A DNA stretch of 64,000 nucleotides, from assembly GCA_964632965.1 (NCBI GenBank), contig CAZWFC010000001.1, forward strand, positions 804 to 64,803, given 5' to 3'. The DNA is from an uncultured Rhodocyclaceae bacterium (lineage in GTDB: Bacteria; Pseudomonadota; Gammaproteobacteria; Burkholderiales; Rhodocyclaceae). Positions within the stretch are counted from its first letter, which is position 1; every line of letters begins with the position of its first letter. Positions 18,901 to 48,096 of this stretch are shown here, one piece after another. The position numbers were made by a program, and so were the translations under genes. The notes beneath the pieces are model-generated. The model was not told where the DNA came from. It ran no database searches and saw nothing but the letters and a program-made list of their open reading frames with translations.

Positions 18901-18903
18901 TTC

Positions 18904-19614: not shown

Positions 19615-19625
19615 GGAACGGCGAT

Positions 19626-20973: not shown

Positions 20974-20989
20974 CCAGCGGGAGGTCGCC

Positions 20990-23107: not shown

Positions 23108-23424
23108 CGAGCCGGCCATCGACCCGCGCCTTCGTGGCACTGGCTGCGGCGGTCGCGGTGTTTTTCCTCACCTTCGCCGATGCCGCGCAACTGGCGCACA
23201 TGCGCGCCGCCGGTCGGGCCGAAGCCGCCGCACTCGCGGCCCGGCTCGGCCTCACCGATCTTGCGCTATTCACGGAGGCGCGCTACACGCGCCATCCGAC
23301 GCAGGCGGATCTGCACTCGGCCTTTCAGGACCACCCGCTCGCCCTGGAGCACTTTCCCACCGGCAGCCTGCTGCCGCCCCAACCTCATGAATCCGTGGAT
23401 CGAAAAGCAGCGCAGCCTGATTGA
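23104..23424 (+). CDS. Hypothetical membrane-anchored protein (106 aa)
   Basis: GTG start forms a GTGA overlap with the SCO1 stop. N-terminal TM helix AFVALAAAVAVFFLTF. The frame is strongly GC3-rich. No family recognised. Confidence 0.5.
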   Translation: MTSRPSTRAFVALAAAVAVFFLTFADAAQLAHMRAAGRAEAAALAARLGLTDLALFTEARYTRHPTQADLHSAFQDHPLALEHFPTGSLLPPQPHESVDRKAAQPD

Positions 23425-27737: not shown

Positions 27738-27884
27738 GCCGCGCGTCATTTGCCGCCCGATCGCGCACGCAAGCATGAAGAACGCAAGGGTGCGGCATCG
27801 TGTCACATGAGGTATCAGCCCTCTCGGCGCATCTCCCCGACTGTAGCTGCAAATCCGGCAGCCGAAACATTAGCGGGGATCACC

Positions 27885-30326: not shown

Positions 30327-30335
30327 TCGATCTGC

Positions 30336-30984: not shown

Positions 30985-32268
30985 TCATCGAATAGGTAAG
31001 GTGCCGCCGTCCGCCGCTTGCCTTGCCGCCGACTTCTGACGGGCGCGACGTTTTTTCCGCCAGACATATACTCCCGTTGCCGCCAGCATGGCGACGGCCA
31101 GGCCGAGGATGCAAACGAAGATGCGGTAGGGCAGGCCGAACACATTGGCTTCGTGCAAGGTTTGCAGCCAGTGGGTAACGGTGCTGCCGCTGTGCTGTCC
31201 GGAAGGAAGCACCAGTTGTCTGAGTTCTCCGGTGTCGGCATCGAAGATTGCTTGCGTGCGTCCACGCTTGTCCTGGAAGTCCAGGCTGCTGTGGACGACG
31301 TAGTGGTAGTTGCCATGTTCGCGGTCGATCCAGAGATTGACCGGGCGTTCGACGACGAAGCCATGGCGTCGCGCTTGCTCAGCCATCAGGCGCTCGGCGG
31401 CTTGTTGCGCCTGCCGCCAGCCAAGCAGGGGATTTTCCACCGGCTTGTCCAGTCTTGAGCCCTCCCAGGGGCGTTGCGGGTAGTCGAGCACCAGGCGGGT
31501 CACCGGCGCATAAACCTGGTCATGCAGATTCATGAAGACGCTCGACCAGGCGAAAATCAGCAGCGGCAGCCACAGCCACAAGCCGCTGGCACGGTGCAAA
31601 TCGAAGTTGATGCGATAGGCGGAAGCCTGCCTCTTCACCAGCCAGGCTGGCTTCCAGCGGACAAGAAAGCTGCGCCGGCCGGACAAATCTCCCGTCGTCG
31701 GCAAAGCCGCGTGGACGTTCTCCCGATCGCTTCGCTTGCGCCGCCTGGCCGGCAAGGTGAGGTACAAACCTGCAAAACAGTCGATGGTCCAGAGCAAGGC
31801 GGTGATGCCGAGGATCCACTTCCCGATGTTTCCAAGCGCCAGGTTGAAGTGCAGTTTGTAGATGAACGGCATGAGGTTGACCCAGCCGGTGGAGATGGCA
31901 CCCCATTGACGGCGTCCCAGTTCGTTCCCGGTATAGGGATCCAGGAATATGGAATTGAAACCCAGTTCGACGGGCCTGCCGGTCAATGGATCGATACGCG
32001 GTGCGAGATACACCAAGGCCGTTCCGGCTTCTCCCAGGAAGACGCCGTTGATGCGTGCCTGCGGGACCAGGCTTTCGGCGCGCTCGGCCAGGGCGGCCTG
32101 ATCCAGCATCTTGCCCGCGTGCGGTGCCGGAAACAGTTGTGGCGCGGTGATGCGGTTCAGTTCGGGTAGAAACGCGAGCAGGCTGCCGGTCAGCCCGGCA
32201 AGCATCAGCGGCAAGGCCATGCCGAGGCCGACGTAGCGGTGCAGGCGGGCCCATAGCCTCCGTGTCAT
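30985..32268 (-). CDS. PepSY-associated TM-helix protein (PiuB/FoxB-like)
   Basis: ORF trimmed to ATG 32268 (MTRRLWARLHRYVGLGMALPLML). LHFNLALGNIGKWILGITALLW, and a terminal TM helix plus a basic tail. Confidence 0.8.
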   Translation of the reverse strand: MTRRLWARLHRYVGLGMALPLMLAGLTGSLLAFLPELNRITAPQLFPAPHAGKMLDQAALAERAESLVPQARINGVFLGEAGTALVYLAPRIDPLTGRPVELGFNSIFLDPYTGNELGRRQWGAISTGWVNLMPFIYKLHFNLALGNIGKWILGITALLWTIDCFAGLYLTLPARRRKRSDRENVHAALPTTGDLSGRRSFLVRWKPAWLVKRQASAYRINFDLHRASGLWLWLPLLIFAWSSVFMNLHDQVYAPVTRLVLDYPQRPWEGSRLDKPVENPLLGWRQAQQAAERLMAEQARRHGFVVERPVNLWIDREHGNYHYVVHSSLDFQDKRGRTQAIFDADTGELRQLVLPSGQHSGSTVTHWLQTLHEANVFGLPYRIFVCILGLAVAMLAATGVYVWRKKRRARQKSAARQAADGGTLPIR

Positions 32269-32343
32269 GGGCAGCACCGGCCGGCGTCGGTCGGTTCGGC
32301 GGCAGTCAGGAAATGCCAAGCCGGGAACTGCCGCGCCATCGTC

Positions 32344-34677: not shown

Positions 34678-34805
34678 GGCGTATTTCTTCCCTTTGATGA
34701 ACGGTCGATATCCTTACGACGTTCGGGGCAGGGAGAAGTGGACATGCTTGGCGTACTGGCGTTTCCGCAGCACTCCATGACGAGGGGCGACCGGCCTGAT
34801 CCGGT

Positions 34806-35762
34806 TCAGGAAGCCGCTGCGCGCCGCAGGATCACCCGATCCGGCGCCTGGATCTGCGCCCTCACCGGGAACCCGGCTTCGAGCGTCTTCAGGAACAGGT
34901 TGAGATCGGTGATGCGGAAAATTCCGCTGATGCGCAGGTCGGCCAGCGCGGGATCGGCGAGGTCGAAATGCACGGGGTAGTAGCGGACGAGGCGTTCCAG
35001 TACTTCGCCCAAGGGTTCGTTGCGGAAGACCCGCAGCCCTTCCTGCCAGGCGGCGGCCGTAGCGTCCACGGGTACGACCGGAGACACGGCGCCGGCATTG
35101 TCGAAGCCGACGCCCTGACCGGCATCGAGTGCCACGCGGCCGTGCGGGGTGCCGATGTCGACCTTGCCTTCGAGAACGGCGACATGGACATGGCCGTGTT
35201 GCATCTCGACATTGAAGCGGGTGCCCAGATCGACGATACGGCCGGCTCCCGCCGTTACCGCAAAGGGTCGCGACTCGTCGTGCGTGACGGCAAACAGCGC
35301 TTCGCCGCGGACCAGGGTGACGTTGCGCCGCCGGTAGCCGATCCGATGCGTGATCTCGCTGCCGGCGTCGAGGACGACCTTCGAGCCGTCGGCGAGGGTG
35401 AGGATTTTCTGCTGGCCGCGGGCAGTGGCAATGGTTTCGGACACGCCGTTCCACCAGCGGTCGGCCATCACGCCGAGCGGAATCGTCAGCAGGGCGAAGG
35501 CGAACCCGATGGCGGCACCAACCAGAGGGCCGCGACCCAGAATGCGTCGCGGCGGCGGTTTGCAATGACTGCCGGCTTCGGCCAGTTCGCCGGCGATGCC
35601 CCAGGTTCGGGCCACCCGCGCGTAGGCTTGCCGATGTGCCGGGTCGGCCGCCAGCCAGTCGTCTAGTTCCTGCGCATCCTTCCCGCCCCACTCGCCGGAA
35701 TGGGCGGCAACCCACCAGCGGATGGCTTGCCGTTCAGCCGGAGAAAGATTCGGATCGGACAT
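34806..35762 (-). CDS. FecR-family anti-sigma / signal transducer
   Basis: ORF trimmed to ATG 35762 (MSDPNLSPAERQAIRWWV). A TM helix and a FecR domain (LVRGEALFAVTHD...IVDLGTRFNV). Confidence 0.85.
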   Translation of the reverse strand: MSDPNLSPAERQAIRWWVAAHSGEWGGKDAQELDDWLAADPAHRQAYARVARTWGIAGELAEAGSHCKPPPRRILGRGPLVGAAIGFAFALLTIPLGVMADRWWNGVSETIATARGQQKILTLADGSKVVLDAGSEITHRIGYRRRNVTLVRGEALFAVTHDESRPFAVTAGAGRIVDLGTRFNVEMQHGHVHVAVLEGKVDIGTPHGRVALDAGQGVGFDNAGAVSPVVPVDATAAAWQEGLRVFRNEPLGEVLERLVRYYPVHFDLADPALADLRISGIFRITDLNLFLKTLEAGFPVRAQIQAPDRVILRRAAAS

Positions 35763-35837
35763 CGAGGTTGGCTCTGCCGGGGAAGATGGGAGCATATACC
35801 TTACGACGGCCGGGGCGATGCAAAGTGGACAGGGTCA

Positions 35838-36341
35838 TCAATCCGCCAGCCGGGCCAGACAATGGCTCAGGGCGCGTTCGATGTGGCGCTGGACGGTCTT
35901 GGTGGAGACGCCGAGCCGGTCGGCGATCTGGGCATGAGTGAGTCCTTCCAGCCGGTTCAGCAGGAAGGCGTTTCGGCAGGCGGCAGGCAGGTCGTCGAGG
36001 GCGTTCGCCAGCCGTTCCACCTGCCGCCGGGCGTCTATCACGGTTTCGTGACAGGGCTGCGGGCAGATCGGTTCGAAGTCCGCATCGGCAGCGTCGAACA
36101 GGTCTTTGCGCACTTGCTGCCGGCGCCAGGCATCCACCGTCAGGTTGCCGGCCGTGGCGAAGGCGATGGCACGCGGTTCGCGCCATGACTCGGGATTGCC
36201 ATGTTGGTGAAGATTGAGCCAAGTGTCCTGCACGATGTCCTCGGCATCCTGGCTGCCGACACGGCGTGTCACGTAGGAGAGAAGGTCTTCCCTCGCGTCA
36301 TGAAACAGCGAGATCAGAAAATTGGGTTTGTTGGCCGGCAT
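35838..36341 (-). CDS. ECF sigma-70 factor (FecI-like)
   Basis: DAEDIVQDTWLNL and LEGLTHAQIADRLGVSTKTVQRHIERAL. I chose the start at ATG 36341; ATG 36386 is possible. Confidence 0.8.
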   Translation of the reverse strand: MPANKPNFLISLFHDAREDLLSYVTRRVGSQDAEDIVQDTWLNLHQHGNPESWREPRAIAFATAGNLTVDAWRRQQVRKDLFDAADADFEPICPQPCHETVIDARRQVERLANALDDLPAACRNAFLLNRLEGLTHAQIADRLGVSTKTVQRHIERALSHCLARLAD

Positions 36342-36378
36342 CGAGCGCAAATTCTGCCTGCGACACAGCGTATCCGTG

Positions 36379-36395
36379 TGCGGCAAATTGCCGCA
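36379..36395. promoter_or_regulatory. Candidate RegA-type operator (TGCGGCA-AAT-TGCCGCA)
   Basis: Perfect 7-3-7 inverted repeat in the divergent region between the ECF sigma gene and the tlpA-like/Cu-ATPase operon (start 36457). Confidence 0.5.
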
Positions 36396-36456: not shown

Positions 36457-36951
36457 ATGAAACTCCTGCTTTTTTCGCTTCTGGTTTTTCTCGGCACCGC
36501 CTGCGGCGGCAACGAAGCACAATCCAAGCTCAACATCGGCGGTATGGCGCCGACATTCCAGACCTACCGGCTCGACGGCGCGCCGGCCCATTTCCCTGCC
36601 GCTTATGCCGGCAAGCCGGTGGTGATCCGTTTCTGGGCCGACTGGTGCAAGTTCTGCGAGGGCGAGATGAAGGCCATCGAGGCGGTCTACCGGCGCCACA
36701 AGGGCCGCGGCCTCGAAGTCCTGGCCGTCAATGCCGGCCAGGACAAGGCCAGCGTCGAGGCCTTCGTGAAGAAGATCGGCATCAGCTATCCGGCGCTGCT
36801 CGACGAGAAATCCGCCATCGCCAGGCAGTACGGCGTGGTGGGGCTGCCGACGACGTACTTCGTCGACGCCAAGGGCATCGTCCGCGCCAAGATCGTCGGC
36901 GAGGCCGACGAGGCCACTTTCGAGCGGCATGTGCTGGACCTGCTGAAATGA
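36457..36951 (+). CDS. TlpA/ResA-family periplasmic thioredoxin-like lipoprotein
   Basis: Lipobox FLGTAC. Active-site motif WADWCKFCEGE. GLPTTYFVD. Confidence 0.85.
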   Translation: MKLLLFSLLVFLGTACGGNEAQSKLNIGGMAPTFQTYRLDGAPAHFPAAYAGKPVVIRFWADWCKFCEGEMKAIEAVYRRHKGRGLEVLAVNAGQDKASVEAFVKKIGISYPALLDEKSAIARQYGVVGLPTTYFVDAKGIVRAKIVGEADEATFERHVLDLLK

Positions 36952-37136
36952 GCGACCCGAACCGGCCCTGCGATCTTTGCGCCCTCGCCGTCGGCATCAA
37001 GCCTTTCGCGTTGCCGACCCCGGGAAAGACGCTCGAATTCTGCTGCGAGGGCTGCAAGGGGATTTACGAAATGTTGCACCAGATCAATGAACCGCCGGCT
37101 GGATCGGCACAGAATGATTCGACCGAATCGCACTAA
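36948..37136 (+). CDS. 62-aa Cys-rich mini-protein resembling the N-terminal metal-binding domain of FixI/CcoI-type ATPases
   Basis: ATGA overlap with the tlpA-like stop. Translation MSDPNRPCDLCALAV...LEFCCEGCKGIYEML (a CxxC ... CCxxC pattern). Confidence 0.6.
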   Translation: MSDPNRPCDLCALAVGIKPFALPTPGKTLEFCCEGCKGIYEMLHQINEPPAGSAQNDSTESH

Positions 37137-37146
37137 GGAGATCGCC

Positions 37147-37503
37147 ATGTTGATGGAAGAAGCTGCCAAACACGCCGCAGGACAGATGCCTGGCATGATG
37201 GGTGGGATGATGACCAATCCGATGGCCCACGGCGCCATGATGGCGGCCACCGGCTTCGCTGCCGGGCGCGGACTGGTCGGCGCGACGCTGTTCCGCAATC
37301 CGCTGCTGCTGCTGGCTGGCGGCATTGCCGTCGGTTACCTGCTGCACAAGTACGAAAAGGAAATCGTGCTGGCGGTGACCAAGGCCACGGGCATGGGCAA
37401 GGACTTCGTGTTGCAGCAGCAGGAAAACCTCAACGACCTCGTCGCCGAGGCGCAGCAGACAGAGGCGCAGGAAGGTGCCGCCGCCGCGCCGCCGCAGGGC
37501 TGA
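37147..37503 (+). CDS. Small Met-rich membrane protein (118 aa)
   Basis: ORF 37087..37503 trimmed to ATG 37147, with AGGAG 8 nt upstream. N-terminus QMPGMMGGMMTNPMAHGAMMAATG, then TM helix LLLLAGGIAVGYLL. Confidence 0.6.
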   Translation: MLMEEAAKHAAGQMPGMMGGMMTNPMAHGAMMAATGFAAGRGLVGATLFRNPLLLLAGGIAVGYLLHKYEKEIVLAVTKATGMGKDFVLQQQENLNDLVAEAQQTEAQEGAAAAPPQG

Positions 37504-37510
37504 TCCCGTC

Positions 37511-38167
37511 ATGAACGTAGAGGAATTGGCGCGGCGGATCGTCGTCCGCCACCGGGAGCTTGGTCATTTGCGGCTGGAACTGCCGGCGGAGTTGTGTCGC
37601 GCCGCGACGGCGGCCGTGGTGGAAGGAAGCCTGAGGCAGGTGGAAGGAGTCTATCGCGTCGACTTCGATCTCCCCTCGCGACGGCTGTCGATTCGTTTCG
37701 ACAGCCATGTCTGTACGACCGGCGATGTGGCGCGCCAGTTGAAAACATTGCTGAAGCGGGTGGCGCCTCATTTGCCCGCTTACCTGCCCCCATCGGCCGC
37801 TTCGGCGTCATCGGATGGCGAAGTGCTGGCGAACCATCCGTTCCACAAGGTCGGCGAGCGGGTGCGCGAGGTGGCACGGGAGGCCGCCGCGCGCGTGAAG
37901 GTGGCGCTTGCGGGCCTGAATCCGCCCGCGGTCGCGGAGGGTTCGCTGCAAGCCAAGCTGCAGCCGGTGATCGCCAGTGCGCTCACCGAGAAGGCGATCA
38001 CCAACTTCATCAACGACATCGTCGCCTTCTACCTGATCAAGGTGCATTGGGAACTTATTTCGCAGCGCTGGCTGAAAGACCCGCTCAAGTTCCGCAACGC
38101 CTGGCTGACCACTTTCTACCTCGTCTTCCTGCTCGTGCGTTACCGCAAGCAGGGCGCGAAGAAATGA
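37511..38167 (+). CDS. Hypothetical protein: Cys-less HMA-like N-domain + C-terminal membrane segment
   Basis: ORF trimmed to ATG 37511. The N-domain pattern (LGHLRLELP...[21 protein letters not shown]) parallels the first domain of the downstream ATPase. C-terminal helices [11 protein letters not shown] and [10 protein letters not shown]. Confidence 0.55.
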
Positions 38168-40590
38168 ACTTCAGCGTCGCCCATCGCCTGACACGCCGCA
38201 TCCGCCTGGTGGCGCCGCCGCTGGTCAAGCAGCCGGAGCGCTGCTACCTGCTCGAAATTTTGCTGCGCAAGCATGCCGCAGTGAAGGATGTGCGCATCGT
38301 GCCGGAGATCGGCTCGTTGACGTTGTATTACGATCCCGCGCAACTGCCCGAGCCGCGCCTGCTCGCCGTTGTCGATGCGGTGATCGGCAATATTGCCACG
38401 GCTGCGCCTGCGCCCCCGCCACCGGCCCCTCTGGTGGCCGACGGCCCGGTGCAGGAGTGCAACGTCGCTGTCGAGGGCATGACATGCGCCTCGTGCGCAG
38501 CATTGATCGAAATGTCGCTGAAGCGCGATCCGCGCGTGGCCGATGCCGGCGTGAATTACGCCGCGGAAACGGCGACCGTGCGCGGCCAATTGACACGCGA
38601 CGATGTCTTCGCGCTCGTGAACAAGCTCGGCTACCGGCCGCACCCGATGGATACGCTGGCCCAGCGCCGCCTGATGGTCGAGCGCGAGAAGGTGCGGCTG
38701 GCCGAAGCGAAGCGGCGCCTGGTGCAGGCCGCATGGCTGACGGTGCCGGTGATGGTGTCCGGCATGCTGATGCACCGTTCGCCGGCCCTGCGCGTCATGG
38801 AACTGGCGCTGTCGTCGGCCGTCCTGTTCGGCAGCGGCAGCGAGATTTTCCGCAAGGCCTGGGCTCTCGCCAAGCAGCGCGAGGCGAACATGGACACGCT
38901 GATCGCGGTCGGTGCCGGCGCTGCCTACGCCTACAGCCTGCCCGGCGCGCTGCGCATGCACCACCACGTCTATTTCGAGTCGGCCGCCGGCATCGTCGCC
39001 TTCGTGCTGCTCGGCCGCTACATGGAGGAACGAGCCAAGGGCAAGGCCTCCGAGGCGATACGCAAGCTCATCGAACTGCAGCCCGAGACGGCGATTCGCA
39101 TCACGGTGCAGGGCGACGAGACCGTGCCGATCGACGCGGTGCAGGTCGGCGACCTGCTGCGCGTGCGGCCCGGCGACAAGGCGCCGACTGACGGGGTGGT
39201 GGTCGAGGGCGCCTCGCGCGTCGACGAATCCATGCTCACCGGCGAGTCGCTGCCGGTGGCGAAAGGGCCGGGCGACGCGGTCGTCGGCGGTTGTCTGAAC
39301 GGCAACGGCGCCTTCACCCTGCGCGTTACGGCCATCGGCGGCAATACCGTGCTCGCCGGCATCGTCAAACTCGTCGATCACGCGCAAGGCTCGAAACTGC
39401 CGGTGCAGAAGCTGGCCGACCGCATCTCCGCGCGTTTCGTGCCGGCCGTCGGCGTCGTTGCCGCAGCCACCTTCGGCGGCTGGCTGCTGGCGGGCCACCC
39501 GACCTCGCGCGCGCTGGCGCACGCCGTCGCGGTGCTGCTGATCGCCTGCCCCTGCGCGCTCGGGCTGGCCACACCGACCGCGATCATGGTCGGCACCGGC
39601 CAGGCGGCGCGGCGCGGCATCTACATTCGCAACGGCGAAGCATTGGAAACCGCGGCGCAACTCACCACCCTGGTGTTCGACAAGACCGGCACCATCACCG
39701 AGGGCCGGCCGGTCGTCACCGACTTCGTCGCCATCGAGGGCGCGGATGAAGCGCACCTGCTTGCCCTGGTCGCCGGTGTCGAAGCGCATTCCGAACATTT
39801 TCTCGCCCGGGCCATCGGCGCCTTCTGCCGGGCGCGCGGCGCCGCGCCCGCGCCGGTGGCCGATTTCGAGGCCTGGCCCGGCCGCGGCGTGCGTGCCCAT
39901 GTCGGCGCGGGCGAACTCCTGATCGGCAACAGCGCGCTGATGGAATCAGCCGGCATCGCCGTCGACCGGCAGGCCGACCAGGCCGAGGCACTGGCGGCGC
40001 AGGGGAAGACGCCGGTATTCGTGGCCCACGAGGGCATGTGCGTCGCGCTCTTCGCCATCGCCGACCGGCCGCGCGCCGGCGCGCGCGAAGCCATCGCCCT
40101 GCTGCACCGGCTCGGCCTCGTCACCATCATGGCGACGGGCGACGTGGCCGCGGCCGCCAACCATATCGCGCGCGAAGTCGGCATCGATCGCGTCATCGCC
40201 CGCGCCACGCCGGCCGACAAGCTGGCGCTGATTCGCAGTTTGCAGGCGGAAGGAAAGAAAGTCGGCATGATCGGCGACGGCATCAACGACGCCCCCGCGC
40301 TGGCGGCGGCGGATGTCGGCTTCGCCATCGGCGGCGGTGCCGACATCGCGGTGGAATCCGCCGACGTCACGCTGGTCGGCGGCGACATCGCCCGCGTCGC
40401 GGCCGGCATCGACCTTTCGCGGCGCACCATGACCGTGATTCGCCAGAACCTCTTCTGGGCGCTGGGCTACAACACCGTTTCCATTCCCGTCGCGGTGGCC
40501 GGACGCCTCAATCCGATGATCGCCTCGGCGGCCATGGCGCTCTCTTCGGTGTCGGTGGTGACGAATTCGCTGCGGCTGCAGCGGCCGTAG
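38164..40590 (+). CDS. P1B-type heavy-metal (Cu+) translocating ATPase
   Basis: ORF 37594..40590 trimmed to ATG 38164 (ATGA overlap). HMA GMTCASC, TGES, CPC in TM6 ([14 protein letters not shown]), [13 protein letters not shown]. 808 aa. Confidence 0.9.
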
Positions 40591-40597
40591 GCGATCT

Positions 40598-41362
40598 CTA
40601 TTCCAGAACCCTGACCACCCGGAAGCCGAAGTCGCCGGCGCGGAAACTCGGCTTGAAACTGAACCGGAGCGTGGCGCGGCTGTACTGGGGGCCGCTGAGC
40701 CAGGAGCCGCCGCGCAGGATGCGGCTGGCGCATTCACCTGCATCCTCCCAAGAGGACCCGTCCGCCGGGGCACCGGCATAGCTGGCGTGGCTGCAATCCT
40801 GAATCCACTCCCAGACATTGCCGCTCATGTCGTACAGGCCCCAGATGTTGGGCTGCTTCTGGCCGGCCGGATGGGGGCTACCGTATGTGTCCCCGGCCCA
40901 GGCGACCCGGTCGGCATCATCGCCGCCGCAGTAGTCATGCCGGCCACCGGCGCGGCATGCGTATTCCCATTCCGCTTCGGAGGGCAGGCGGTAGGCTTTC
41001 CCGGTCTTCGCGCTCAGGCGTTTCACGAATTCCTGCGCATCGTGCCAACTGACGCTTTCTACCGGGCAGGTGTCGCCGCAAGTGACGGCCTTGCTCGGAT
41101 TGCTACCCATGACGGCCTTCCATTCTCCCTGCGTGACTTCATATTTTCCGATGGCGAAGGCGCGCAGGGTCACGACATGAACCGGCGCGGCGTTGGAGGG
41201 CATCGCCGCGCCCATCTGGAAGCTCCCGGTCGGCAGGGTTTCCATTTCCGGGCAGTCGGCGCAGTCCTTGAAGGATGCGGCTTGCGCGCCGATCTGCCAC
41301 AGAGCGGCGATCAGCAAAAGCAGGTGGGAATATTTTTTCATCGGGGCTTTTCTCGCGGCCAT
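40598..41362 (-). CDS. Exported FGE/SUMF1-sulfatase-domain protein
   Basis: ORF trimmed to ATG 41362, which forms an ATGA overlap with the upstream stop; ATG 41341 is an alternative. Signal peptide KKYSHLLLLIAALWQIGAQA. Blocks FAIGKYEVTQGEW, VSWHDAQEFV, YRLPSEAEWEYACRAG, GNVWEWIQD, RGGSW. Confidence 0.8.
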   Translation of the reverse strand: MAARKAPMKKYSHLLLLIAALWQIGAQAASFKDCADCPEMETLPTGSFQMGAAMPSNAAPVHVVTLRAFAIGKYEVTQGEWKAVMGSNPSKAVTCGDTCPVESVSWHDAQEFVKRLSAKTGKAYRLPSEAEWEYACRAGGRHDYCGGDDADRVAWAGDTYGSPHPAGQKQPNIWGLYDMSGNVWEWIQDCSHASYAGAPADGSSWEDAGECASRILRGGSWLSGPQYSRATLRFSFKPSFRAGDFGFRVVRVLE

Positions 41363-41970
41363 CAGCTTTGCGGTTTTTTCGCCGCGCGGCGGCGGCGCTC
41401 TTCGCGGTTCTTGCGCATGCGGTCGAGATCGTCGGCGAGGTCGGTGAACGAGACCTTCAATGTCTGCTGAAAGTCCAGGAGTTGTCCGCCATGAGTTTTC
41501 TGCATGGAGGTAGCCGCTTCCACGCTGCTGAAGGCGACCTTGCTGTTCCAGGTCATTACGCCCGGCAGGTCGCTGCCGACGAGGAAGGTCGCCTTGCCGA
41601 CTTCGACGAGCGGCCGCGGATCGGTTTCGATGGCATTGTCGCCGACGTAGATCGCCTTCGGGTCGAGCGCCAGGTTGATGGCTAGGCTGATGACGGCGCA
41701 ATGGATGGAACAGAGCGGGTCGGGCAGGTCGTTGCTGAAGTGGATCAACATCCGGGCGCGATGGTTGTAGCGACGATCCATACCGCAATAGGGACAGGTC
41801 GGGTACTTCTCGATGTCGTCGATTTCGGGCGCGGGATCGAACGGCTTCTTCGGTAGAAATTGGGCCGGCGTACCGTCAGTCGGCTTGCTTTGACAATCGG
41901 CGCGGGCGGGCGCGGTGGCGATGCCGGCGCCTACGAGTAGGGAAAGTTTAAGTAGTTCGCGGCGGTCCAT
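41362..41970 (-). CDS. Tat-exported Cys4 (TRASH-like) / NosL-like metal-binding protein, paralog 2
   Basis: ORF trimmed to ATG 41970, 2 nt after the TBDR stop. MDRRELLKLSLLVGAG. Motif CPYC-x24-CSIHC. NosL-like block IYVGDNA...ATFLVGSDLPGVMT. Basic tail RKNREERRRR. Confidence 0.75.
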   Translation of the reverse strand: MDRRELLKLSLLVGAGIATAPARADCQSKPTDGTPAQFLPKKPFDPAPEIDDIEKYPTCPYCGMDRRYNHRARMLIHFSNDLPDPLCSIHCAVISLAINLALDPKAIYVGDNAIETDPRPLVEVGKATFLVGSDLPGVMTWNSKVAFSSVEAATSMQKTHGGQLLDFQQTLKVSFTDLADDLDRMRKNREERRRRAAKKPQS

Positions 41971-41972
41971 GA

Positions 41973-44348
41973 TCAGAAGTCCATGCCGAGAGAGACCTTC
42001 AGGCTGCGCCCTTCCTGATAAGTGTAGGCGTAGGCATTGGACGACTGGTAAGCCGAGTAGCGTTTGTCGAACAAGTTGCCGACGCCGGCATCGATCTTGT
42101 AGCGCTGACCAGTCGGTGCCCAACTCAGGAACAGGTCGTGGGTGGCGTAGCCGGGGCGGCGGCGCAGTACGGTGGCATCGTAGTCCTGGGAGGCTATGGC
42201 CGTGGTGTTCCAGAATACCGCCACACTTTCCCTGGGCAACTGTCGGCGAACCTGGAGCGAGAATTTGTCCGGCGGCGAGAACAGCCCATTGCCGCTGCTG
42301 CTGTCGGTGATGCGCACCCGGCTGTAGGCGGCATTGAATTGCCAGAGGTCGATGCCGTATCCGCCTTCGATTTCGCCACCGGTGCGCTTGGCATTGGGAA
42401 TGTTCTGATACTGGAGTTTGCAGTTGAGTCCCGTGGCGGCGCAGTTGGCGGCGTAGGTGGCTTGTTGCGCCGGAGTCGAGCCGGCGGGGGCCATGCCGCC
42501 GAGATTGGTGCTGTAGATGAGGTCGGTGGCGCGGGAGTCAAACACGGAAACGCGTAGCTTCAGCGTGTCTCGTTCGGCGAAGACGTTCTTGCGCCGGAAG
42601 TCGGCGCCGATTTCGGCGGTCTTGTCGATTTCGGGTTTCAGGCCGGCATTGGGAAGGAAGTTGGTTAGACCGAAGCCCGTATAGTTCTGATAGAGCTCGT
42701 TTACCGTTGGTGCCCGGAATGCCTCGCCGAAGCTGCCATACAACATCAGTCCCTTGTCATTCCATGCCAGTGCCAGCTTGGGGGATAAGCGGCCGGCACC
42801 GTTGGGCGCCAAGCTGTTGTCGCCGAGGGCGGCGTCGTAATGGTCGGAGCGCAGGCTGGGCGTCAGGCTCCAACTTTCACCCAAGGCGATTTCATCCTGG
42901 ACGAAGATTCCGGTCACCTTGCGGTTGCCGTCGCGGATCACCGTGCTCGGTGCCGACGGGTTGGCCGCCGACGCCGAGACCGCGAACTGGCGGTCCTTGA
43001 AGTAATCGATACCGCCGGTGAGACGATGCTGCACCGTATCCGCCGCACCGAGCATCAGGGTGCCTTGCACGCTGGCGCCATCGGTGATGGTCCGACTGTT
43101 GCTGTACAGGACATTGGTGATGGTGGGGTCAGGGCTTTTATCGGCGATGATTTTCAGATCGGCCCGATACACCGTGGCAACGACGGCCGGAGCGCCGCCG
43201 GCGTTTCCGAACAGCCCCTTCAGGACGCTATTGCTCTGGTCGATGTGGGTGAGTTGGATTGCCGGCTTGTCGATCGGGAGGTTGGCTGTCTTGTAGTCGG
43301 TCGCCTGCGGATTGTTCACCTGAAGGTTCTGGCTGCGATAAAACTGATGGGAAAGTTCTATGCGGCCGTCCTTGATCGGTTGTATGCCAAGCTTGACGAG
43401 TCCGGTAGCGGAATTGCCGTCATTGGGATCGAGGTAGGAACCGCCGCCTTGCCTGACCTTGTTCCAATCGTGCTTGCCCAGTGCCAGCAGTCCGTCCGCC
43501 CCATCGTTCGCTGCATAGATACGGGCATTGAGGTTGTCCGACCCATCGGCCGTTGCGTGACCCGCCTTGATCCCGCCGCCCAATGTCTGCCCCGGCGCCA
43601 GCAGATCCCGCGCCGACAGCGTAGTGAACGTCATGAGGCCGCCGATCCCGCCGGATCCATACAGGGACGAAGCCGACCCCCGCAGGACTTCGGCTTGCTT
43701 CAGGAAGTAGGGGTCCAAATAAAGCGGCGACTTCATTCCGGGCGAGGTGGTGTCGTTCTGGCGTGCGCCGTCCACCAGCAAGGTCAGGGATGCACCAAAT
43801 ACGCCGCGTACCGTGGGGACTTCTCCGTTGACTCGCGGGCCGCCGCCGAATTCGACGTTGGGCAGCTTCTTCATCACGTGAGAAACGGTGGACGCTTGTA
43901 CTTCGTCGAAATCGTCCTGAGTCACGACGCTCAGAGATGCCGCAATCTTGTCAAGTGGATTGGCGGTTCGGGTGGCGGATACAACCATTTCGGCGAGTTG
44001 TTGGTCCGCCGTGCCATCGTGTTTCTTCGGCGGCTGTGCCGGACGCAAGGCGAACGTACCGTCGCCGTTGGCCTTGAATTCCAGGCCGCTGCCCGCCAGC
44101 AATGTCCGCAACGCGGCTTCCGGCGTATAGCCACCTTTCAGGGCGGGGCTTCTTTTCCCATCCACCAGGTTTGTCGCAAACAGTATCTGGACGTTTGCCT
44201 GTCTGGCCAGCAGGTTGATGGCGCCACCCATATCCTGGGCGGGGATATCGAGGGCCAGATCGCCGGCATGGGCGACGGCGATGGAAAGGAATGCCATCGC
44301 GACGGCGGTGCAGAGCCTGCGACGCAGGACGGGCGGACGAACGGACAT
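41973..44348 (-). CDS. TonB-dependent receptor with N-terminal STN signalling domain (transducer type)
   Basis: ORF trimmed to ATG 44348. STN block LDIPAQDMGGAINLLARQANVQILF...LLAGSGLEF. Plug MVVSATRTANPLDKIAASLSVV. The C-terminus is ...VSLGMDF. Confidence 0.9.
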   Translation of the reverse strand: MSVRPPVLRRRLCTAVAMAFLSIAVAHAGDLALDIPAQDMGGAINLLARQANVQILFATNLVDGKRSPALKGGYTPEAALRTLLAGSGLEFKANGDGTFALRPAQPPKKHDGTADQQLAEMVVSATRTANPLDKIAASLSVVTQDDFDEVQASTVSHVMKKLPNVEFGGGPRVNGEVPTVRGVFGASLTLLVDGARQNDTTSPGMKSPLYLDPYFLKQAEVLRGSASSLYGSGGIGGLMTFTTLSARDLLAPGQTLGGGIKAGHATADGSDNLNARIYAANDGADGLLALGKHDWNKVRQGGGSYLDPNDGNSATGLVKLGIQPIKDGRIELSHQFYRSQNLQVNNPQATDYKTANLPIDKPAIQLTHIDQSNSVLKGLFGNAGGAPAVVATVYRADLKIIADKSPDPTITNVLYSNSRTITDGASVQGTLMLGAADTVQHRLTGGIDYFKDRQFAVSASAANPSAPSTVIRDGNRKVTGIFVQDEIALGESWSLTPSLRSDHYDAALGDNSLAPNGAGRLSPKLALAWNDKGLMLYGSFGEAFRAPTVNELYQNYTGFGLTNFLPNAGLKPEIDKTAEIGADFRRKNVFAERDTLKLRVSVFDSRATDLIYSTNLGGMAPAGSTPAQQATYAANCAATGLNCKLQYQNIPNAKRTGGEIEGGYGIDLWQFNAAYSRVRITDSSSGNGLFSPPDKFSLQVRRQLPRESVAVFWNTTAIASQDYDATVLRRRPGYATHDLFLSWAPTGQRYKIDAGVGNLFDKRYSAYQSSNAYAYTYQEGRSLKVSLGMDF

Positions 44349-44420
44349 CTTGACTTCTCCCTGAGTTGGCAACGATCAGGGTGTAGACGCCGAAGGGTGG
44401 GGTTCACCCAACCCCGGCAT

Positions 44421-45419
44421 TCAGCGAAGTGGCGGGAGCGGCGTTTCTTTCCCGCCAGGCCGGATGGCTACGAGGTCTACGCGCCCGTCGCGACCGACAG
44501 CCCGCAGCGGCAGTGTCTGTTCGAGCGCCCAGACGAGACCCCTGTTGTCATCGAGGCGGAAGACGCCGGAAACTTTCAGTCCTTCAAGTGCCGTGTCGGC
44601 AATCGCGAGCGGTTCCTTGCGGTAGCGATTGGCGCGAACAACCGCTACGCGCAATGGCGTGCGGTCGAATACCAGGCGACCTTCGCGCCAGGCGAAAGTG
44701 GCGTCGGCATCGAGGGGCATGGGTTGGCTGACCGTTTGAGGGCCGAGAACGACACCTTGCCCCGCAGTGACCCGATGCGGCGGGCTGTCGCCCTCGCGCA
44801 GGCCGGCTTCCACTTCGCCCTCGGCAACGGCGACGGTGGTGCGTCCGTCGTCTTCCAGACGCACACCGAAGCGCGTGCCGATGTCGACGATCCGCCCGGC
44901 ACCGGCCTCCACCACGAAACGTCGCTCGGGTCGATGAACTACTTCGAAATAGGCTTCGCCGCGCTCGACGACGATGTGCTGGCTATTGTCGGAAGGATGG
45001 ACAGTGACGACGGAGTCGACATCGAGATGCAGGCGAGAGCCGTCGTCGAGGACGATCTGCTTGCGTTCTCCGGATGCGGTGGTCAGGCGCAGCGTGCGCA
45101 TCGGGCTCTCCAGCGTGACAAGGCCGATGGCAACGACGAGGACGAAGGCGGCGGCCAACGCCGGTCGCCAGGGAACCGCGCGCCGGGCGGAAGCGTCGCG
45201 ACGTTCGCTCCGAACGACCGGGCTGTCGGCCAGGTCGCCGACGGCATCCCAGAGTGCGTGCAATGCCTCGAATTCGCGGCGATGGCGGGTATCGGCAGCG
45301 AGCCAGGCGTCCAGTTGCCGCCTGTCGTCCGCGGTGAGACGGCCTGACCGGCAGCGGGCCAGCCAGGAGGCGGCCTGTTCGCGGATTGTCGCGGCCGAAG
45401 CGTTGTCGGAACGGGTCAT
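44421..45419 (-). CDS. FecR-family anti-sigma / signal transducer
   Basis: ORF trimmed to ATG 45419 (MTRSDNASAATIREQAASWL). TM helix ALAAAFVLVVAIGLV. FecR domain VERGEAYFEVVH...IVDIGTRFGV. Confidence 0.85.
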   Translation of the reverse strand: MTRSDNASAATIREQAASWLARCRSGRLTADDRRQLDAWLAADTRHRREFEALHALWDAVGDLADSPVVRSERRDASARRAVPWRPALAAAFVLVVAIGLVTLESPMRTLRLTTASGERKQIVLDDGSRLHLDVDSVVTVHPSDNSQHIVVERGEAYFEVVHRPERRFVVEAGAGRIVDIGTRFGVRLEDDGRTTVAVAEGEVEAGLREGDSPPHRVTAGQGVVLGPQTVSQPMPLDADATFAWREGRLVFDRTPLRVAVVRANRYRKEPLAIADTALEGLKVSGVFRLDDNRGLVWALEQTLPLRAVGRDGRVDLVAIRPGGKETPLPPLR

Positions 45420-45478
45420 CGGCCGAAGCTTACGCGCGTGTCGAGGCGGTTGCCAACAGGAGAGATTCTGCGCCCCGA

Positions 45479-46042
45479 TCAACGCTGATCCGGCTCGTCG
45501 AGCCGTGTTCGCAGATGCAATAAGGCCTTGGCAATGTGGCGCTCGGTCATTTGTCGCGAAATGCCCATTCGTTCGGCTACCTCGACTTGCGACAAGCCTT
45601 CGAAGCGGTTGAGAACGAAAGCGCGTCGACATTGGGGCGACAATTCCGCGACGGCAGCTTCGGCCCGGTGCATGAGCTGCCGGAATGCGGCGGTTTCTTC
45701 CGGATCGGGCGCGGACGAAGGCATGTCGTCGAATACCCGTGATTCGGCAGTTTCGGGTCGCTTCCGCATGTTCCGGTAATGGTCGACGACAAGATTGCGG
45801 GCGATGCAGTAGGCGAACGCGAGCGGATTGCGTACCTCCGCTTCGTTCTGTCCAGACAGTCGCACGAAAATTTCCTGCGTCAGATCGGCAGCCGTTTCTT
45901 CACAGCGCAGACGCGCCGACAGAAATCCGCGCAGTTCGGCCGCATGATGGAAGTAGAGATCGAAAAGCGGTGACTTGCGCGACACGTCGTGGCCTGAAGT
46001 TGTTCCTTGTTTTTGCAGAGAGCGCATTCCCGACGCAGGCAA
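45479..46042 (-). CDS. ECF sigma-70 factor (FecI-like)
   Basis: AADLTQEIFVRL and FEGLSQVEVAERMGISRQMTERHIAKAL. The start may be 46042 or 46027. Confidence 0.8.
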   Translation of the reverse strand: MPASGMRSLQKQGTTSGHDVSRKSPLFDLYFHHAAELRGFLSARLRCEETAADLTQEIFVRLSGQNEAEVRNPLAFAYCIARNLVVDHYRNMRKRPETAESRVFDDMPSSAPDPEETAAFRQLMHRAEAAVAELSPQCRRAFVLNRFEGLSQVEVAERMGISRQMTERHIAKALLHLRTRLDEPDQR

Positions 46043-46134: not shown

Positions 46135-46151
46135 TATGGCAAATTGCCGCA
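46135..46151. promoter_or_regulatory. Weak candidate RegA-type operator (TATGGCA-AAT-TGCCGCA)
   Basis: One perfect and one degenerate half-site in the divergent region between the ECF sigma gene and 46226. Confidence 0.3.
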
Positions 46152-46225: not shown

Positions 46226-46927
46226 ATGGATCATTCGCATCACCATGCCGTAGCCGAGTTCTCCTACTGGCTGGCCTTCATGACCGGGCTGCTCGGCAGC
46301 GGCCATTGCCTGGGTATGTGCGGCGGCCTGGTGTCCGGCTTCTTCATGAAGCTCAACGCGAAAGGCGTGTCGCCCTACCTCGCCTACCATGGCGCACGTG
46401 TATCGGTGTATGCGCTGATCGGCCTCGTCGCCGCGCTGGTGGGCACGGTGCTGGTGGCGACCGGCATGGTCGGCCTGGCGCAGGGGGTGTTGCAGATTGT
46501 CGCCGGCGTCATCGTCATCCTGCTCGGACTCGATCTGCTGGGCGTTTCGCCGTTGCGCAACAGCGTCGGTTTTGCTCCCCTGGCCTGGTTGCGCCGCCAG
46601 TTTGTCGCCGCAACGCAGAAGGGGCCGGTGGCCGGCGCGCTGATCGGCGGCGCCATCAACGGCCTCATGCCCTGCTCGATGACCATGGCGATGGCGGTGC
46701 AGGCGACCACCGCACCGTCGCCACCCGAGGGCATGCTGCTGATGCTGGCCTTCGGCGCCGGCACGCTGCCGGCGATGCTCTCGGCCTCTTTCCTCTTCGG
46801 CAAGTTCGGTCCGCGGCTGCGCGGCTGGCTGCTCCGGGGCGCGGCGCTGTTCGTCATCGCCTTGGGCGTGTCGACGCTGTGGCAGGGCGTGCGCTTCTAT
46901 CTCGTCATGTACAAGCTGGTGCTCTGA
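46226..46927 (+). CDS. Polytopic membrane protein, DsbD_2/CcdA-like or TauE/SafE-like, with a His-rich N-terminus
   Basis: MDHSHHHAV..., GSGHCLGMCGG in TM1, GLMPCSMTMAM in a later TM. 233 aa, about 6 TM helices. Paralog of 6091..6783. Confidence 0.75.
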   Translation: MDHSHHHAVAEFSYWLAFMTGLLGSGHCLGMCGGLVSGFFMKLNAKGVSPYLAYHGARVSVYALIGLVAALVGTVLVATGMVGLAQGVLQIVAGVIVILLGLDLLGVSPLRNSVGFAPLAWLRRQFVAATQKGPVAGALIGGAINGLMPCSMTMAMAVQATTAPSPPEGMLLMLAFGAGTLPAMLSASFLFGKFGPRLRGWLLRGAALFVIALGVSTLWQGVRFYLVMYKLVL

Positions 46928-46928
46928 C

Positions 46929-46945
46929 TGCGACAACATGCCGCA
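46929..46945. promoter_or_regulatory. Candidate RegA-type operator (TGCGACA-ACA-TGCCGCA)
   Basis: Begins 2 nt after the stop of 46226..46927 and lies 67 nt upstream of the ATG at 47012. Confidence 0.5.
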
Positions 46946-47011
46946 GTGGAGATATATTCAGCAAGACTAATATTGCGGGGAAACTTATTCCCTTTGTGAA
47001 GGAGCCATGAC

Positions 47012-47623
47012 ATGGATCGCCGCGATTTGCTCAAACTTTCCCTCGCCGCCGGCGCCGGCCTCGCCGTGCACACCGCCCAGGCGCAGCAGCCCGCGTGCGC
47101 GACCGATGGTACGCCCGCCCAGTTCACACCGAAGCGGCCGCCTGACGCGAGTCCGGCGGAGAACGACATCGGCAAGCAGCCCAAGTGTCCCTACTGCGGC
47201 ATGGACCGCAAGCAGTTCGGCCATACGCGCATGCTGGTGCATTACAGCGACGACCTGTCCGACGGCACCTGTTCCCTGCATTGCGCGGCGATCAGTCTCG
47301 CGGTGAATGTCGATCGCGAGCCGAAGGCGATCTATGTCGGCGACAACGCCGCGACTGCGGAGACGAAGCCGCTGGTCGAAGTGGGCAAGGCGACCTTTCT
47401 CATCGGCAGCGGCATCAAGGGCGTGATGACCAAGCGCAGCAAGATGGCCTACGGCACGGCCGACGTCGCCAGGGCGGCGCAGGCCGCGCATGGCGGCGAA
47501 CTCGCCGGTTTCGATCAGGCGTTGCTGGCGGCCTATGCCGACATGGCCGCCGACGTCGCCATGATCCGCAAGAACCGCGAGGAGCGCCGCAAACGCATGA
47601 TGGATCAGCAGCACAAGGGATGA
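47012..47623 (+). CDS. Tat-exported Cys4 (TRASH-like) / NosL-like metal-binding protein, paralog 3
   Basis: MDRRDLLKLSLAAGAGLAV. Motif CPYC-x24-CSLHC. NosL-like block IYVGDNA...ATFLIGSGIKGVMT. Tail RKNREERRKR. Very similar to paralog 2. Confidence 0.75.
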   Translation: MDRRDLLKLSLAAGAGLAVHTAQAQQPACATDGTPAQFTPKRPPDASPAENDIGKQPKCPYCGMDRKQFGHTRMLVHYSDDLSDGTCSLHCAAISLAVNVDREPKAIYVGDNAATAETKPLVEVGKATFLIGSGIKGVMTKRSKMAYGTADVARAAQAAHGGELAGFDQALLAAYADMAADVAMIRKNREERRKRMMDQQHKG

Positions 47624-48096
47624 AGCGCTTTCTCTGCGCCCTGTCGCTCCTCTTCTGGGCCGTCCTGACGGCGGCCCAGGTGCCGCCGAAGCCGGGAACA
47701 AAGGATTTGTGCCCGGTCTGCGGCATGCTGGTCGCGAAATATCCGAACTGGGCGGCCACCGTCGTCTGGCGCGACGGCCATGCCCACCACTTCGACGGCG
47801 CCAAGGACATGTTCAAGTTCCTTCACGACCTGGCGAAATTCGCTCCCGGCCACAAGTCGCAGGATATCGCCGGTCTGTACGTCACCGACTTCTACGGCCT
47901 GGGAAAAATCGATGCGAAGAAGGCCTTCTATGTCATCGGTTCCGACGTGCTCGGGCCGATGGGACACGAACTGGTGCCGCTGGCCAATGCGGAAGATGCC
48001 GCGGATTTCATGAAGGACCACAAGGGAAAGCGCCTGCTCGGTTTCGACCAGGTGAGCCGCGACGTGCCGCAGGGCCTGGATTCCGGGAAATTCTGA
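47620..48096 (+). CDS. NosL-family exported copper-binding protein
   Basis: ATGA overlap with the upstream gene. Signal peptide MKRFLCALSLLFWAVLTAAQ. DLCPVCGMLVAKYPNW..., AFYVIGSDVLGPMGHELVPLANAEDAADFM, typical of the NosL family. No nosZ/nosDFY nearby. Confidence 0.75.
   Translation: MKRFLCALSLLFWAVLTAAQVPPKPGTKDLCPVCGMLVAKYPNWAATVVWRDGHAHHFDGAKDMFKFLHDLAKFAPGHKSQDIAGLYVTDFYGLGKIDAKKAFYVIGSDVLGPMGHELVPLANAEDAADFMKDHKGKRLLGFDQVSRDVPQGLDSGKF

Follow-up and report, generated by a model that had tools for sequence, protein, structure and literature searches.

A five-gene unit found in DNA of an uncultured Rhodocyclaceae bacterium is probably an undescribed copper-acquisition route, rather than an ordinary iron system. 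This unit, called module A here, occupies positions 40598-46042 of a 64,000 nucleotide (nt) stretch of contig CAZWFC010000001.1 (hereafter the window), and encodes an extracytoplasmic function (ECF) sigma factor, a FecR-type anti-sigma factor, a TonB-dependent receptor (TBDR) with an STN signalling domain, a NosL-family protein and a PvdO-like protein with the fold of the formylglycine-generating enzyme (FGE). The copper reading is based on the fact that the unit sits within a copper-trafficking gene cluster, and that a RegA-type control site is common to both. The evidence consists of the genes present, their synteny, the position of the unit within the copper cluster, the cis-element with its distribution, conserved ligands and protein fold.

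Organization of module A

Pfam and NCBIfam domains confirmed the content, order and coordinates of the five genes (Table 1), as they had been described in an earlier note made from the sequence alone. The best NCBIfam matches of the sigma factor gene, sigA, were FecI-like ECF sigma factors, every one of them under its cut-off. The open reading frame (ORF) of the anti-sigma factor extends to 45632, and the position of its DUF4880 domain supports the start at 45419 that the earlier note had chosen. The 2 nt gap between the receptor gene and the gene of the NosL protein (NosL-A) was found again on the sequence. The coupling between NosL-A and the FGE-like gene, which had been given as ATGA, had to be corrected: the junction reads ...AGC TGA TGG..., i.e. 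the TGA stop and the ATG start overlap by 1 nt (TGATG). An alternative start of the FGE-like gene is present 21 nt downstream, at 41341 (MKKYSHLL...). The G+C content of the window is ~65%, and its proteins have their nearest relatives in uncultured Rhodocyclaceae and related Betaproteobacteria.

Conservation of the module in other genomes

NosL-A relatives were aligned and one genome per species was scanned, which yielded 79 loci. The receptor-NosL-FGE core was present in all 16 related loci examined. In the 12 loci of NosL-A orthologues (NosL 73-83% identical), a type-A receptor always lay directly upstream and an FGE-like gene directly downstream, and 9 of these loci had the sigma and FecR genes as well. 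Two loci without sigma and FecR gave a shorter receptor match, of ~650 aa, as expected if the signalling domain has been lost, and one of the 12 ended at a contig edge. The core was also detected in two metagenome loci (L084 and L088). Finally, two loci to which diverged FGE-like proteins of 58% and 62% identity had led (L103 and L104) contained the full five-gene unit according to independent gene calls and precomputed Pfam hits. NosL-like genes are syntenic with such receptors in many genomes.

Among the top relatives of NosL-A and of the FGE-like protein, none was a cultured carrier of the full module. A version of it without receptor is carried by a methanotroph, Candidatus Methylospira mobilis (CP044205.1, 7784-15729), where the order is sigma-FecR-NosL-FGE, with a 360 nt gap and no receptor between FecR and NosL. 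These genes run head-to-tail into a second series (SCO1, small protein, FtsX, ABC, membrane protein, NosL), and a receptor without STN domain is found 1.7 kb further along.

Module A is embedded in a copper-trafficking cluster

Mapping of the window proteins onto the loci, combined with de novo ORF clustering, revealed a conserved gene cluster around the modules. It is contiguous in seven loci from Sulfuricella, Gallionellaceae, Tepidiphilus and Accumulibacter genomes, in the order SCO1/SenC, small membrane protein, FtsX permease, ABC ATPase, Cys/His-containing polytopic membrane protein, TlpA/ResA-like thioredoxin, Met-rich protein of 138 aa, P1B-type ATPase, DsbD_2, Tat (twin-arginine translocation)-type NosL and Sec-type NosL. 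Judged by its SCO1, DsbD_2, Cu-ATPase (572 bits with TIGR01511 for a cut-off of 397; motifs in Table 1) and Met-rich protein, this is a cluster that handles copper.

In the window, the cluster is split twice: module A lies between the P1B-ATPase and DsbD_2 genes, and two further modules, B and C (see below), lie between the Cys/His membrane protein and the thioredoxin. In 13 loci from other genomes, the same modules occupy different junctions of this cluster. Such a repeated association in varied arrangements points to a functional link, not to a shared accident of ancestry.

The two NosL genes at the right end of the cluster, NosL-C and NosL-D, had been missed by the earlier note. The stop of the first overlaps the start of the second. 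The 163 aa NosL-D family follows NosL-C in 48 loci, and the pair is usually ~80 nt downstream of a RegA-type box.

Some other features of this region deserve mention. The Cu-ATPase gene and the FGE-like gene converge at 40590-40598, with 7 nt between the two stop codons, which leaves no space for separate terminators. The Met-rich protein, whose N-terminal half is the part rich in methionine (MPGMMGGMMTNPMAHGAMMAATG), has no family match and is encoded upstream of the Cu-ATPase in 14 loci. The polytopic membrane protein has no match in Pfam or NCBIfam either. Its gene comes after the FtsX/ABC pair in every case (35 loci), and a role as metal-binding partner of a MacB-type transporter is conceivable. 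A 482 aa ORF on the minus strand (24489-25937), which appeared conserved by tblastn (50-70% identity, ~28 loci), was discarded as an antisense artefact, because the GC content by codon position places the real genes, those of the ABC ATPase and the membrane protein, on the plus strand. In eight loci (e.g. L008, 11508-12260) a Crp/Fnr-family regulator with an N-terminal Cys cluster, CNGRSNCFTCSLRSTMVC, adjoins the NosL genes; the window has none.

RegA-type boxes in the promoter regions of the modules and of the copper cluster

A 17 bp palindrome, TGCGRCA-N3-TGYCGCA, recurs in the window, and the regions upstream of sigA and of the module C sigma gene (sigC) both contain GGCAAATTGCCGCAG. In the 1.34 Mb made up by the loci and the window, 45 exact copies and 92 copies with at most one mismatch were counted, compared to 0-2 and 0-8, respectively, in first-order random sequences. 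Placement was then scored with up to 2 mismatches, within 250 nt upstream of a gene. A box was present upstream of 10 of the 13 module sigma genes and of 35 of the 58 NosL-C genes; in four sets of control genes, the counts were 0/16, 0/13, 0/31 and 1/40. The boxes of the window are listed in Table 1. Two of them lie in divergent promoters, shared by sigA and DsbD_2 and by sigC and the TlpA-like gene.

The core of the box, GCGRCA-N3-TGYCGC, fits every position of the RegA consensus SSGNVRDNHYSNCSS, in the form quoted in PMC5506826. Sites resembling it have been mapped by chromatin immunoprecipitation sequencing of R. capsulatus RegA, among them GCGACCGTTCGTCGC at ccoNOQP, and CGGACAAAATGTCGC (PMC5359404). 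A candidate for the protein that binds the boxes is encoded ~1 kb upstream of SCO1. It is a response regulator of the RegA/PrrA/RoxR family, with a helix-turn-helix that reads NISAAARALQMHRRTLQRKLAK and a recognition helix that reads MHRRTLQRKLAK; its best match in the PDB is a 184 aa Burkholderia response regulator (3rqi, E 1e-40). Members of this family are encoded near the cluster in 13 loci, and in several of these a RegB-like kinase with a GGATNPL motif, the quinone-site signature of RegB, lies beside the regulator. No RegB-like kinase was found in the window. From these sequence matches we infer that the regulator and the boxes belong together.

A search for the 19 bp Fur consensus gave no match with 5 mismatches or less in the 64 kb window. 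Matches with 6-7 mismatches lay outside promoter regions, and Fur control was rejected on the grounds that no promoter region had a consensus match even when up to 7 mismatches were allowed. A sigma-54 promoter reading of GGCAAATTGCC was rejected as well: the GG-to-GC spacing is 8 and not 12, and the element is a 7-N3-7 palindrome. The boxes suggest a RegA-family regulon in which outer-membrane transport genes predominate, and this in a stretch devoid of Fur boxes.

NosL-A keeps the Cu(I) ligands of NosL

All four NosL-type proteins of the window, among them the two that the earlier note had called NosL-like (NosL-A and NosL-B), are above the PF05573 cut-off (Table 1), and the profile search with NosL-A matched NosL structures. 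An AlphaFold2 model of NosL-A (pLDDT 78) gave five top Foldseek matches in the PDB that were all NosL (probability 1.0, TMt 0.58-0.70, root-mean-square deviation 2.5-3.3 Å), i.e. the fold made of two beta-beta-alpha-beta domains.

In the NosL of S. denitrificans (SdNosL), Cu(I) is bound by Cys62, Met64 and Met145, each essential by mutagenesis, and Zn is bound tightly by Cys59, Cys62, Cys88 and Asp92, the Zn ligands differing among NosL proteins (PMC8457098). C62, M64 and M139 of NosL-A align with the three Cu(I) ligands of SdNosL, and likewise with the PsNosL positions. At the Zn site, C59 and C87 are kept and Asp92 is replaced by an invariant cysteine, Cys91 (CSIHC), so that a Cys4 site is predicted. 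All six residues (C59, C62, M64, C87, C91 and M139) show no variation across ten diverse relatives, among them the three Tat-NosL paralogues of the window. We propose, from the alignment and the model, that NosL-A may be a periplasmic Cu(I) acceptor. The Tat-NosL signals are of the twin-arginine type (MDRRELLK in NosL-A; MDRRTLLR) and have no lipobox; a Cys after the signal is not conserved.

NosL-A has the Pfam family, fold and Cu(I) ligands of the NosL proteins of nos clusters (S. denitrificans, 7OG7; P. stutzeri NosDFYL, 7OSF-7OSJ). It differs from them by its Tat signal without lipobox, where the nos proteins have a lipoprotein signal, by the Cys in place of Asp92, by an extra N-terminal segment and by a long basic C-terminal helix. 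Moreover, the nos-cluster gene accompanies nosZDFY, whereas that of NosL-A follows a TonB-dependent transducer. No NosZ, NosD or NosY domain was found among the ~45 window proteins that were scanned.

The receptors and the PvdO-like protein

Receptor A scored 381.8 bits with the haem-receptor model TIGR01785, for a cut-off of 316.85. Its nearest relatives are ShuA, HasR and PhuR, with ShuA as the best PDB match (E 3.6e-53). The two His residues of ShuA that ligate haem are both missing: His86, in the plug, aligns with Met213 of receptor A, and His420, between the FRAP and NPNL motifs, with a Gly. FRAP is kept and NPNL reads NAGL. The possibility that Met213 serves as a soft copper ligand was discarded, this residue being Leu in most orthologues.

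Receptor B is nearest to FpvA and FptA (E 1e-117 to 1e-109), and receptor C to FoxA, CntO and FhuA. Membership of the known copper receptor families OprC/NosA and CrtA could be ruled out on scores for all three. With the OprC/NosA model TIGR01778, receptor A reached 43.5 bits for a cut-off of 472.45 and receptor B had no match; the CrtA structure 9RVQ was absent from the matches of receptor A (E<=1e-5), and gave 76 bits with receptor B and 92 bits with receptor C, over a partial stretch.

The earlier note had proposed that the modules import copper chelates rather than ferric siderophores. The copper part of this proposal gained support from NosL synteny, the Cu(I) ligands, the embedding among copper genes, the shared operator and the lack of a Fur box. 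The receptors, in contrast, group with those for haem (A) and pyoverdine/pyochelin (B), and nothing singles out a chalkophore as the ligand.

The FGE-like protein has PvdO (5hha, E 1.3e-39) as its best PDB match. It scored 171.8 bits with the NCBIfam PvdO equivalog model, for a cut-off of 500, and no pvd genes are near. It also lacks a Cys after the RGGS motif, where the sequence is RGGSWLSGPQYSRATLRF; this is the place where the Cu-binding Cys pair of FGE is located. FGE itself binds Cu(I) by two active-site cysteines, and its chemistry and its relatives PvdO and NirV have been described (bioRxiv 10.1101/2021.05.21.445229).

Modules B and C and the other receptors of the window

The three modules all consist of an ECF sigma factor, a FecR/DUF4880 anti-sigma factor and an STN-bearing TBDR, encoded side by side. 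Module B, on the plus strand, has the order given by the earlier note as far as the NosL gene, with the 9 nt gap between receptor and NosL-B. NosL-A and NosL-B are 37% identical (E 3e-36), and receptors A and B are alike in their signalling and plug regions only. In 11 of 22 metagenome loci, the gene directly ahead of the NosL-B relative encodes a type-B receptor.

Module C, which had been missed, is the only one of the three in which a PepSY_TM gene follows the receptor. In this respect it was too strong to say that the receptor is normally the last gene of FecIRA-type modules, as module C ends in PepSY_TM and this pairing with TonB-dependent transporters (TBDTs) is frequent (PMC12914433).

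Four more TonB-dependent receptors and two TonB/ExbB(D) sets are encoded in the window. One receptor (15895-18102, plus strand), without STN domain, has four RegA-type boxes ahead of it and the TonB-ExbB-ExbD genes behind it; its full-length match to the OprC/NosA model reached 131 bits, well under the cut-off of 472. Another (11369-13669, minus strand) is followed by a 477 aa protein with weak DUF4198 and bMG3 matches (region 9961-13669).

Table 1. Features of the window: modules, copper cluster, regulator, TonB set and RegA-type boxes. Positions are those of the window; bit scores are followed by the cut-off.
Feature	Position	Strand	Remarks
Module A			
sigA, FecI-like ECF sigma factor	45479-46042	-	Pfam Sigma70_r2 and r4_2
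FecR-type anti-sigma factor A	44421-45419	-	Pfam DUF4880 and FecR
Receptor (transducer) A, TonB-dependent	41973-44372	-	Pfam STN, Plug, barrel
NosL-A, 202 aa	41362-41970	-	Tat signal; PF05573, 46.2 bits (24)
PvdO-like FGE-fold protein, 254 aa	40598-41362	-	Sec-type signal peptide; PF03781, E 1.4e-49, 169.5 bits
Module B	26281-30917	+	sigma, FecR, STN-TBDR, Tat-NosL-B
Sigma factor B	26281-26799	+	
FecR B	26796-27737	+	
Receptor B, STN-TBDR	27750-30326	+	FpvA/FptA type
NosL-B	30336-30917	+	Tat signal; PF05573, 44.7 bits (24)
Module C	30985-36386	-	sigma, FecR, STN-TBDR, PepSY_TM
sigC	35838-36386	-	
FecR C	34806-35795	-	
Receptor C, STN-TBDR	32344-34677	-	FhuA/FoxA/CntO type
PepSY_TM	30985-32319	-	
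Copper cluster, left half	22532-26186	+	
SCO1/SenC	22532-23107	+	
Small transmembrane protein	about 23101-23421	+	
FtsX-type permease	to 24520	+	
ABC ATPase	24517-25191	+	
Polytopic membrane protein	about 25182-26186	+	invariant YEHPHHHCPFC, ITSCCGS, VGAMCAVGTLNAN
Copper cluster, middle	36457-40590	+	
TlpA/ResA-like thioredoxin	36457-36951	+	
Met-rich protein, 138 aa	37087-37503	+	
P1B-1 Cu(I)-ATPase	37594-40590	+	CPC, YN, MALSS; one HMA
Copper cluster, right end	46226-48096	+	
DsbD_2	46226-46927	+	
NosL-C, Tat type	47012-47623	+	PF05573, 44.0 bits (24); Pfam TAT_signal match
NosL-D, Sec type	47620-48096	+	PF05573, 107 bits (24)
Response regulator, RegA/PrrA/RoxR family (candidate box binder)	20870-21523	+	Pfam Response_reg and HTH_8
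TonB-ExbB-ExbD set	18265-20042		RegA-type box ahead, at 18163
RegA-type boxes			
Divergent sigC / TlpA-like promoter	36379-36395		perfect, TGCGGCAAATTGCCGCA
Divergent sigA / DsbD_2 promoter	46135-46151		2 mismatches; 93 nt upstream of sigA, 75 nt of DsbD_2
Ahead of NosL-C	46929-46945		
Upstream of SCO1	22211		
Between FecR B and probable receptor B start	27791-27807		
Ahead of TonB-ExbBD	18163		
TonB / receptor promoter	about 15730-15817		four boxes
Upstream of receptor 1116-3485	3456, 3925, 3942		three boxes

Discussion

We favour, with a modest degree of confidence and as the simplest account of the data, a copper-supply regulon in which a copper complex would be imported in a ligand-induced, RegA-gated manner, and its copper passed to NosL. 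The RegA/PrrA-type regulator, which reports the redox state of the respiratory chain in characterised systems, would bind the TGCGRCA-N3-TGYCGCA boxes in the promoter regions common to the sigma/anti-sigma genes and the copper-cluster genes, and would set the level of these genes as well as that of the TonB systems and receptors. By analogy with FecIRA, docking of the ligand on transducer A would make the STN domain signal through the FecR anti-sigma factor, and thereby free the ECF sigma factor. Given the domain set, the freed sigma factor would drive transcription of the receptor-NosL-FGE genes, so that each transducer, once bound to its ligand, would induce its own operon. Import would be powered by TonB/ExbBD, two sets of which are encoded nearby. 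The PvdO-like protein may act on, or bind, the organic ligand in the periplasm, and this is the most speculative step. Tat-exported NosL-A would take the Cu(I) at its Cys/Met site, its shape being held by the Cys4 Zn site, as ligand conservation and fold suggest. Finally, the copper would be handed to the co-regulated SCO1, TlpA-like, DsbD_2, P1B-ATPase and NosL-C/D proteins, and haem-copper oxidases and other cuproenzymes would be metallated. In all this we infer the metal, the direction of its transfer and the role of the PvdO-like protein.

A bolder version can be advanced as a tentative possibility. It supposes an unrecognised copper pathway, in which a transducer recruited from the haem or siderophore receptor families would import a copper complex, a PvdO-like enzyme would open or oxidise the ligand, a Tat-NosL would capture the Cu(I) for SCO1, and RegA would act as the switch. 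Candidate ligands would then be a foreign chalkophore or, in keeping with a haem-type receptor that has lost the iron-ligating His residues, a copper tetrapyrrole such as Cu-coproporphyrin III.

Several points weigh against the copper mechanism. By sequence, receptor A falls within the haem-receptor subfamily, FpvA/FptA are the nearest relatives of receptor B, and neither receptor resembles OprC/NosA or CrtA. Apart from a pair of loop Cys, the receptor A orthologues have no conserved Cys or Met capable of binding copper directly. The NosL ligands were equated by alignments of only 22-23% identity. In one locus (L097), more distant Tat-NosL relatives, 54% identical to NosL-B, stand alone among the housekeeping genes thiD, thiE and hemL, which means that the association with receptors is a trait of particular clades rather than of the family at large. 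With seven receptors, the window is a TonB/TBDR island, and co-location could partly reflect a general metal-uptake island. RegA control does not discriminate between metals: RegA drives iron (feo) uptake in Methylomonas (PMC13274454), and respiratory oxidases need haem, iron and copper. Lastly, the organism is uncultured: matching DNA was found in rock and groundwater metagenome DNA runs only, and no RNA run had the sequence.

The rival that has to be taken most seriously, although we consider it rather unlikely, is that the modules are ordinary iron modules. Receptor A would import haem or a haem-like compound and receptors B and C ferric siderophores, while NosL and the PvdO-like protein would be iron or ligand accessories; NosL could, for instance, release iron as a Tat-exported metal or redox protein of the Cys4 kind, in analogy to the PepSY_TM reductase of module C. 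The copper neighbours would be explained by a common respiratory (RegA) regulon in need of iron, haem and copper together. The affinities of the three receptors, the TIGR01785 score of receptor A and the PepSY_TM gene after receptor C are all in line with this view, as are the RegA control of iron uptake in Methylomonas, the island character of the window and the fact that PvdO, to which the FGE-like protein is closest among solved structures, acts on a siderophore. However, an iron system is argued against by the lack of a Fur box anywhere in the window, by the missing haem-ligating His residues and degenerate NPNL motif of receptor A, by the exact Cu(I) ligand set, essential in SdNosL, that NosL-A, B and C retain, and by the repeated insertion of the modules at different points of the SCO1/Cu-ATPase/NosL cluster across genomes. 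Besides, TBDT-PepSY_TM pairs are now known for copper too (PMC12914433).

Uptake of another thiophilic or borderline metal (Zn, Ni or Co), as a metallophore complex or by piracy, with the NosL proteins as acceptors and a Cys4 site that is functional rather than structural, appears highly improbable. ZnuD-type zinc receptors are related to haem receptors, and receptor A has a weak ZnuD match (28.7 bits); the best PDB matches of receptor C include CntO, the receptor for pseudopaline (Zn/Ni/Co); SdNosL itself binds Zn tightly, and in NosL-A a fourth Cys replaces the Asp ligand. Yet the co-regulated cluster is copper-specific, with its SCO1 and its P1B-1 ATPase (CPC/YN/MxxSS, above the TIGR01511 cut-off), no variation was seen in the two Met ligands characteristic of the Cu(I) site, and neither a Zur-like box nor ZnuABC genes were seen among the genes scanned. 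It is highly improbable, too, that the module is a sensing or protective device, whose transducer would report an external copper complex or a competitor's metabolite while NosL and the PvdO-like protein buffer or detoxify it. Cell-surface-signalling systems are inherently sensors, the cluster holds an efflux-type Cu-ATPase, immunity proteins of the periplasm can have the FGE fold, and FGE-like proteins do serve as immunity proteins of type VI secretion (bioRxiv 10.1101/2021.05.21.445229), but no type VI secretion or effector gene adjoins the module in any locus examined. Furthermore, SCO1, TlpA-like, DsbD_2 and NosL proteins serve cuproenzyme assembly and not detoxification, CueO, CusCBA, CopAB and CueR were not seen among the window genes scanned, and RegA-type boxes are no known copper-stress operator.

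The module has to be compared with several known systems. The MbnI/MbnR/MbnT trio likewise consists of an ECF sigma factor, a FecR-type anti-sigma factor and an STN-bearing TBDT, and there it serves copper acquisition; a relative of our module is present in a methanotroph, M. mobilis. Module A differs by its NosL-family and PvdO-like partners and its control by RegA-type boxes, and no mbnABC, MbnE or MbnPH genes were noticed among the scanned neighbours. A recent precedent is given by the CrtA transporters (BfrG/PA0434; PDB 9RVQ), which import chelated copper for haem-copper oxidases. They are free of Fur control; ScoI or PCuAC genes are present in some of their operons, and TonB/ExbBD genes in some (PMC12914433). 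In both systems a TonB-dependent route is proposed or shown to supply haem-copper oxidases with copper, and neither has a Fur box. CrtA is however regulated by an upstream ORF, cruR, without a sigma/anti-sigma pair, and its usual partner is PepSY_TM, not NosL or a PvdO-like protein. OprC/NosA is linked to TonB-dependent copper entry through the outer membrane as well, and tied to the maturation of N2O reductase, where NosL acts; but OprC has no STN domain or sigma/anti-sigma pair, and the receptors described here lack the CxxxM-HxM motif and the Met track.

With FecIRA, HasISR and FpvIR-FpvA, the modules share the three-part architecture and the domain set. Module A departs from these iron systems in having no Fur box, no haem His in its receptor, NosL and PvdO-like genes downstream, and a copper-cluster setting. 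As for RegB/RegA (PrrBA, RoxSR) with senC/prrC, a regulator with a receiver domain and a Fis-type helix-turn-helix is likewise encoded upstream of SCO1/SenC here, and the boxes of the window fit GCGACA-N3-TGTCGC, as at ccoNOQP and cydAB of R. capsulatus. The box-bearing genes here are mostly TonB-dependent receptors, TonB/ExbBD, sigma factors and copper chaperones. The general idea and its parts (TonB-dependent copper uptake, sigma/anti-sigma control, the NosL chaperone and RegA with SenC) are known already, and it is the combination that is new: in the full-text literature we found no description of a receptor-NosL-PvdO-like module, nor of copper-linked cell-surface signalling outside methanobactin.

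Bacterial copper acquisition, unlike copper removal, is still poorly understood, as stated in the 2026 CrtA study (PMC12914433). If the copper mechanism proposed here is true, module A would be a second ligand-sensing copper uptake system besides methanobactin, with a defined periplasmic acceptor for the imported metal and a regulatory link between the state of the respiratory chain and the supply of copper. In the bolder version, NosL would not be specific to nos clusters but would accept copper generally in the periplasm, downstream of outer-membrane transport, and copper import would be under the direct control of respiration. Even with an iron compound as the ligand, a RegA-box regulon of receptors and sigma factors devoid of Fur boxes would be unusual. 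The carriers are Rhodocyclaceae, Gallionellaceae, Sulfuricella and Accumulibacter-type bacteria and one methanotroph, which run phosphorus removal from wastewater, denitrification with its copper enzyme N2O reductase, and the oxidation of iron and methane. The supply of copper to their enzymes therefore bears on the fluxes of N2O and CH4.

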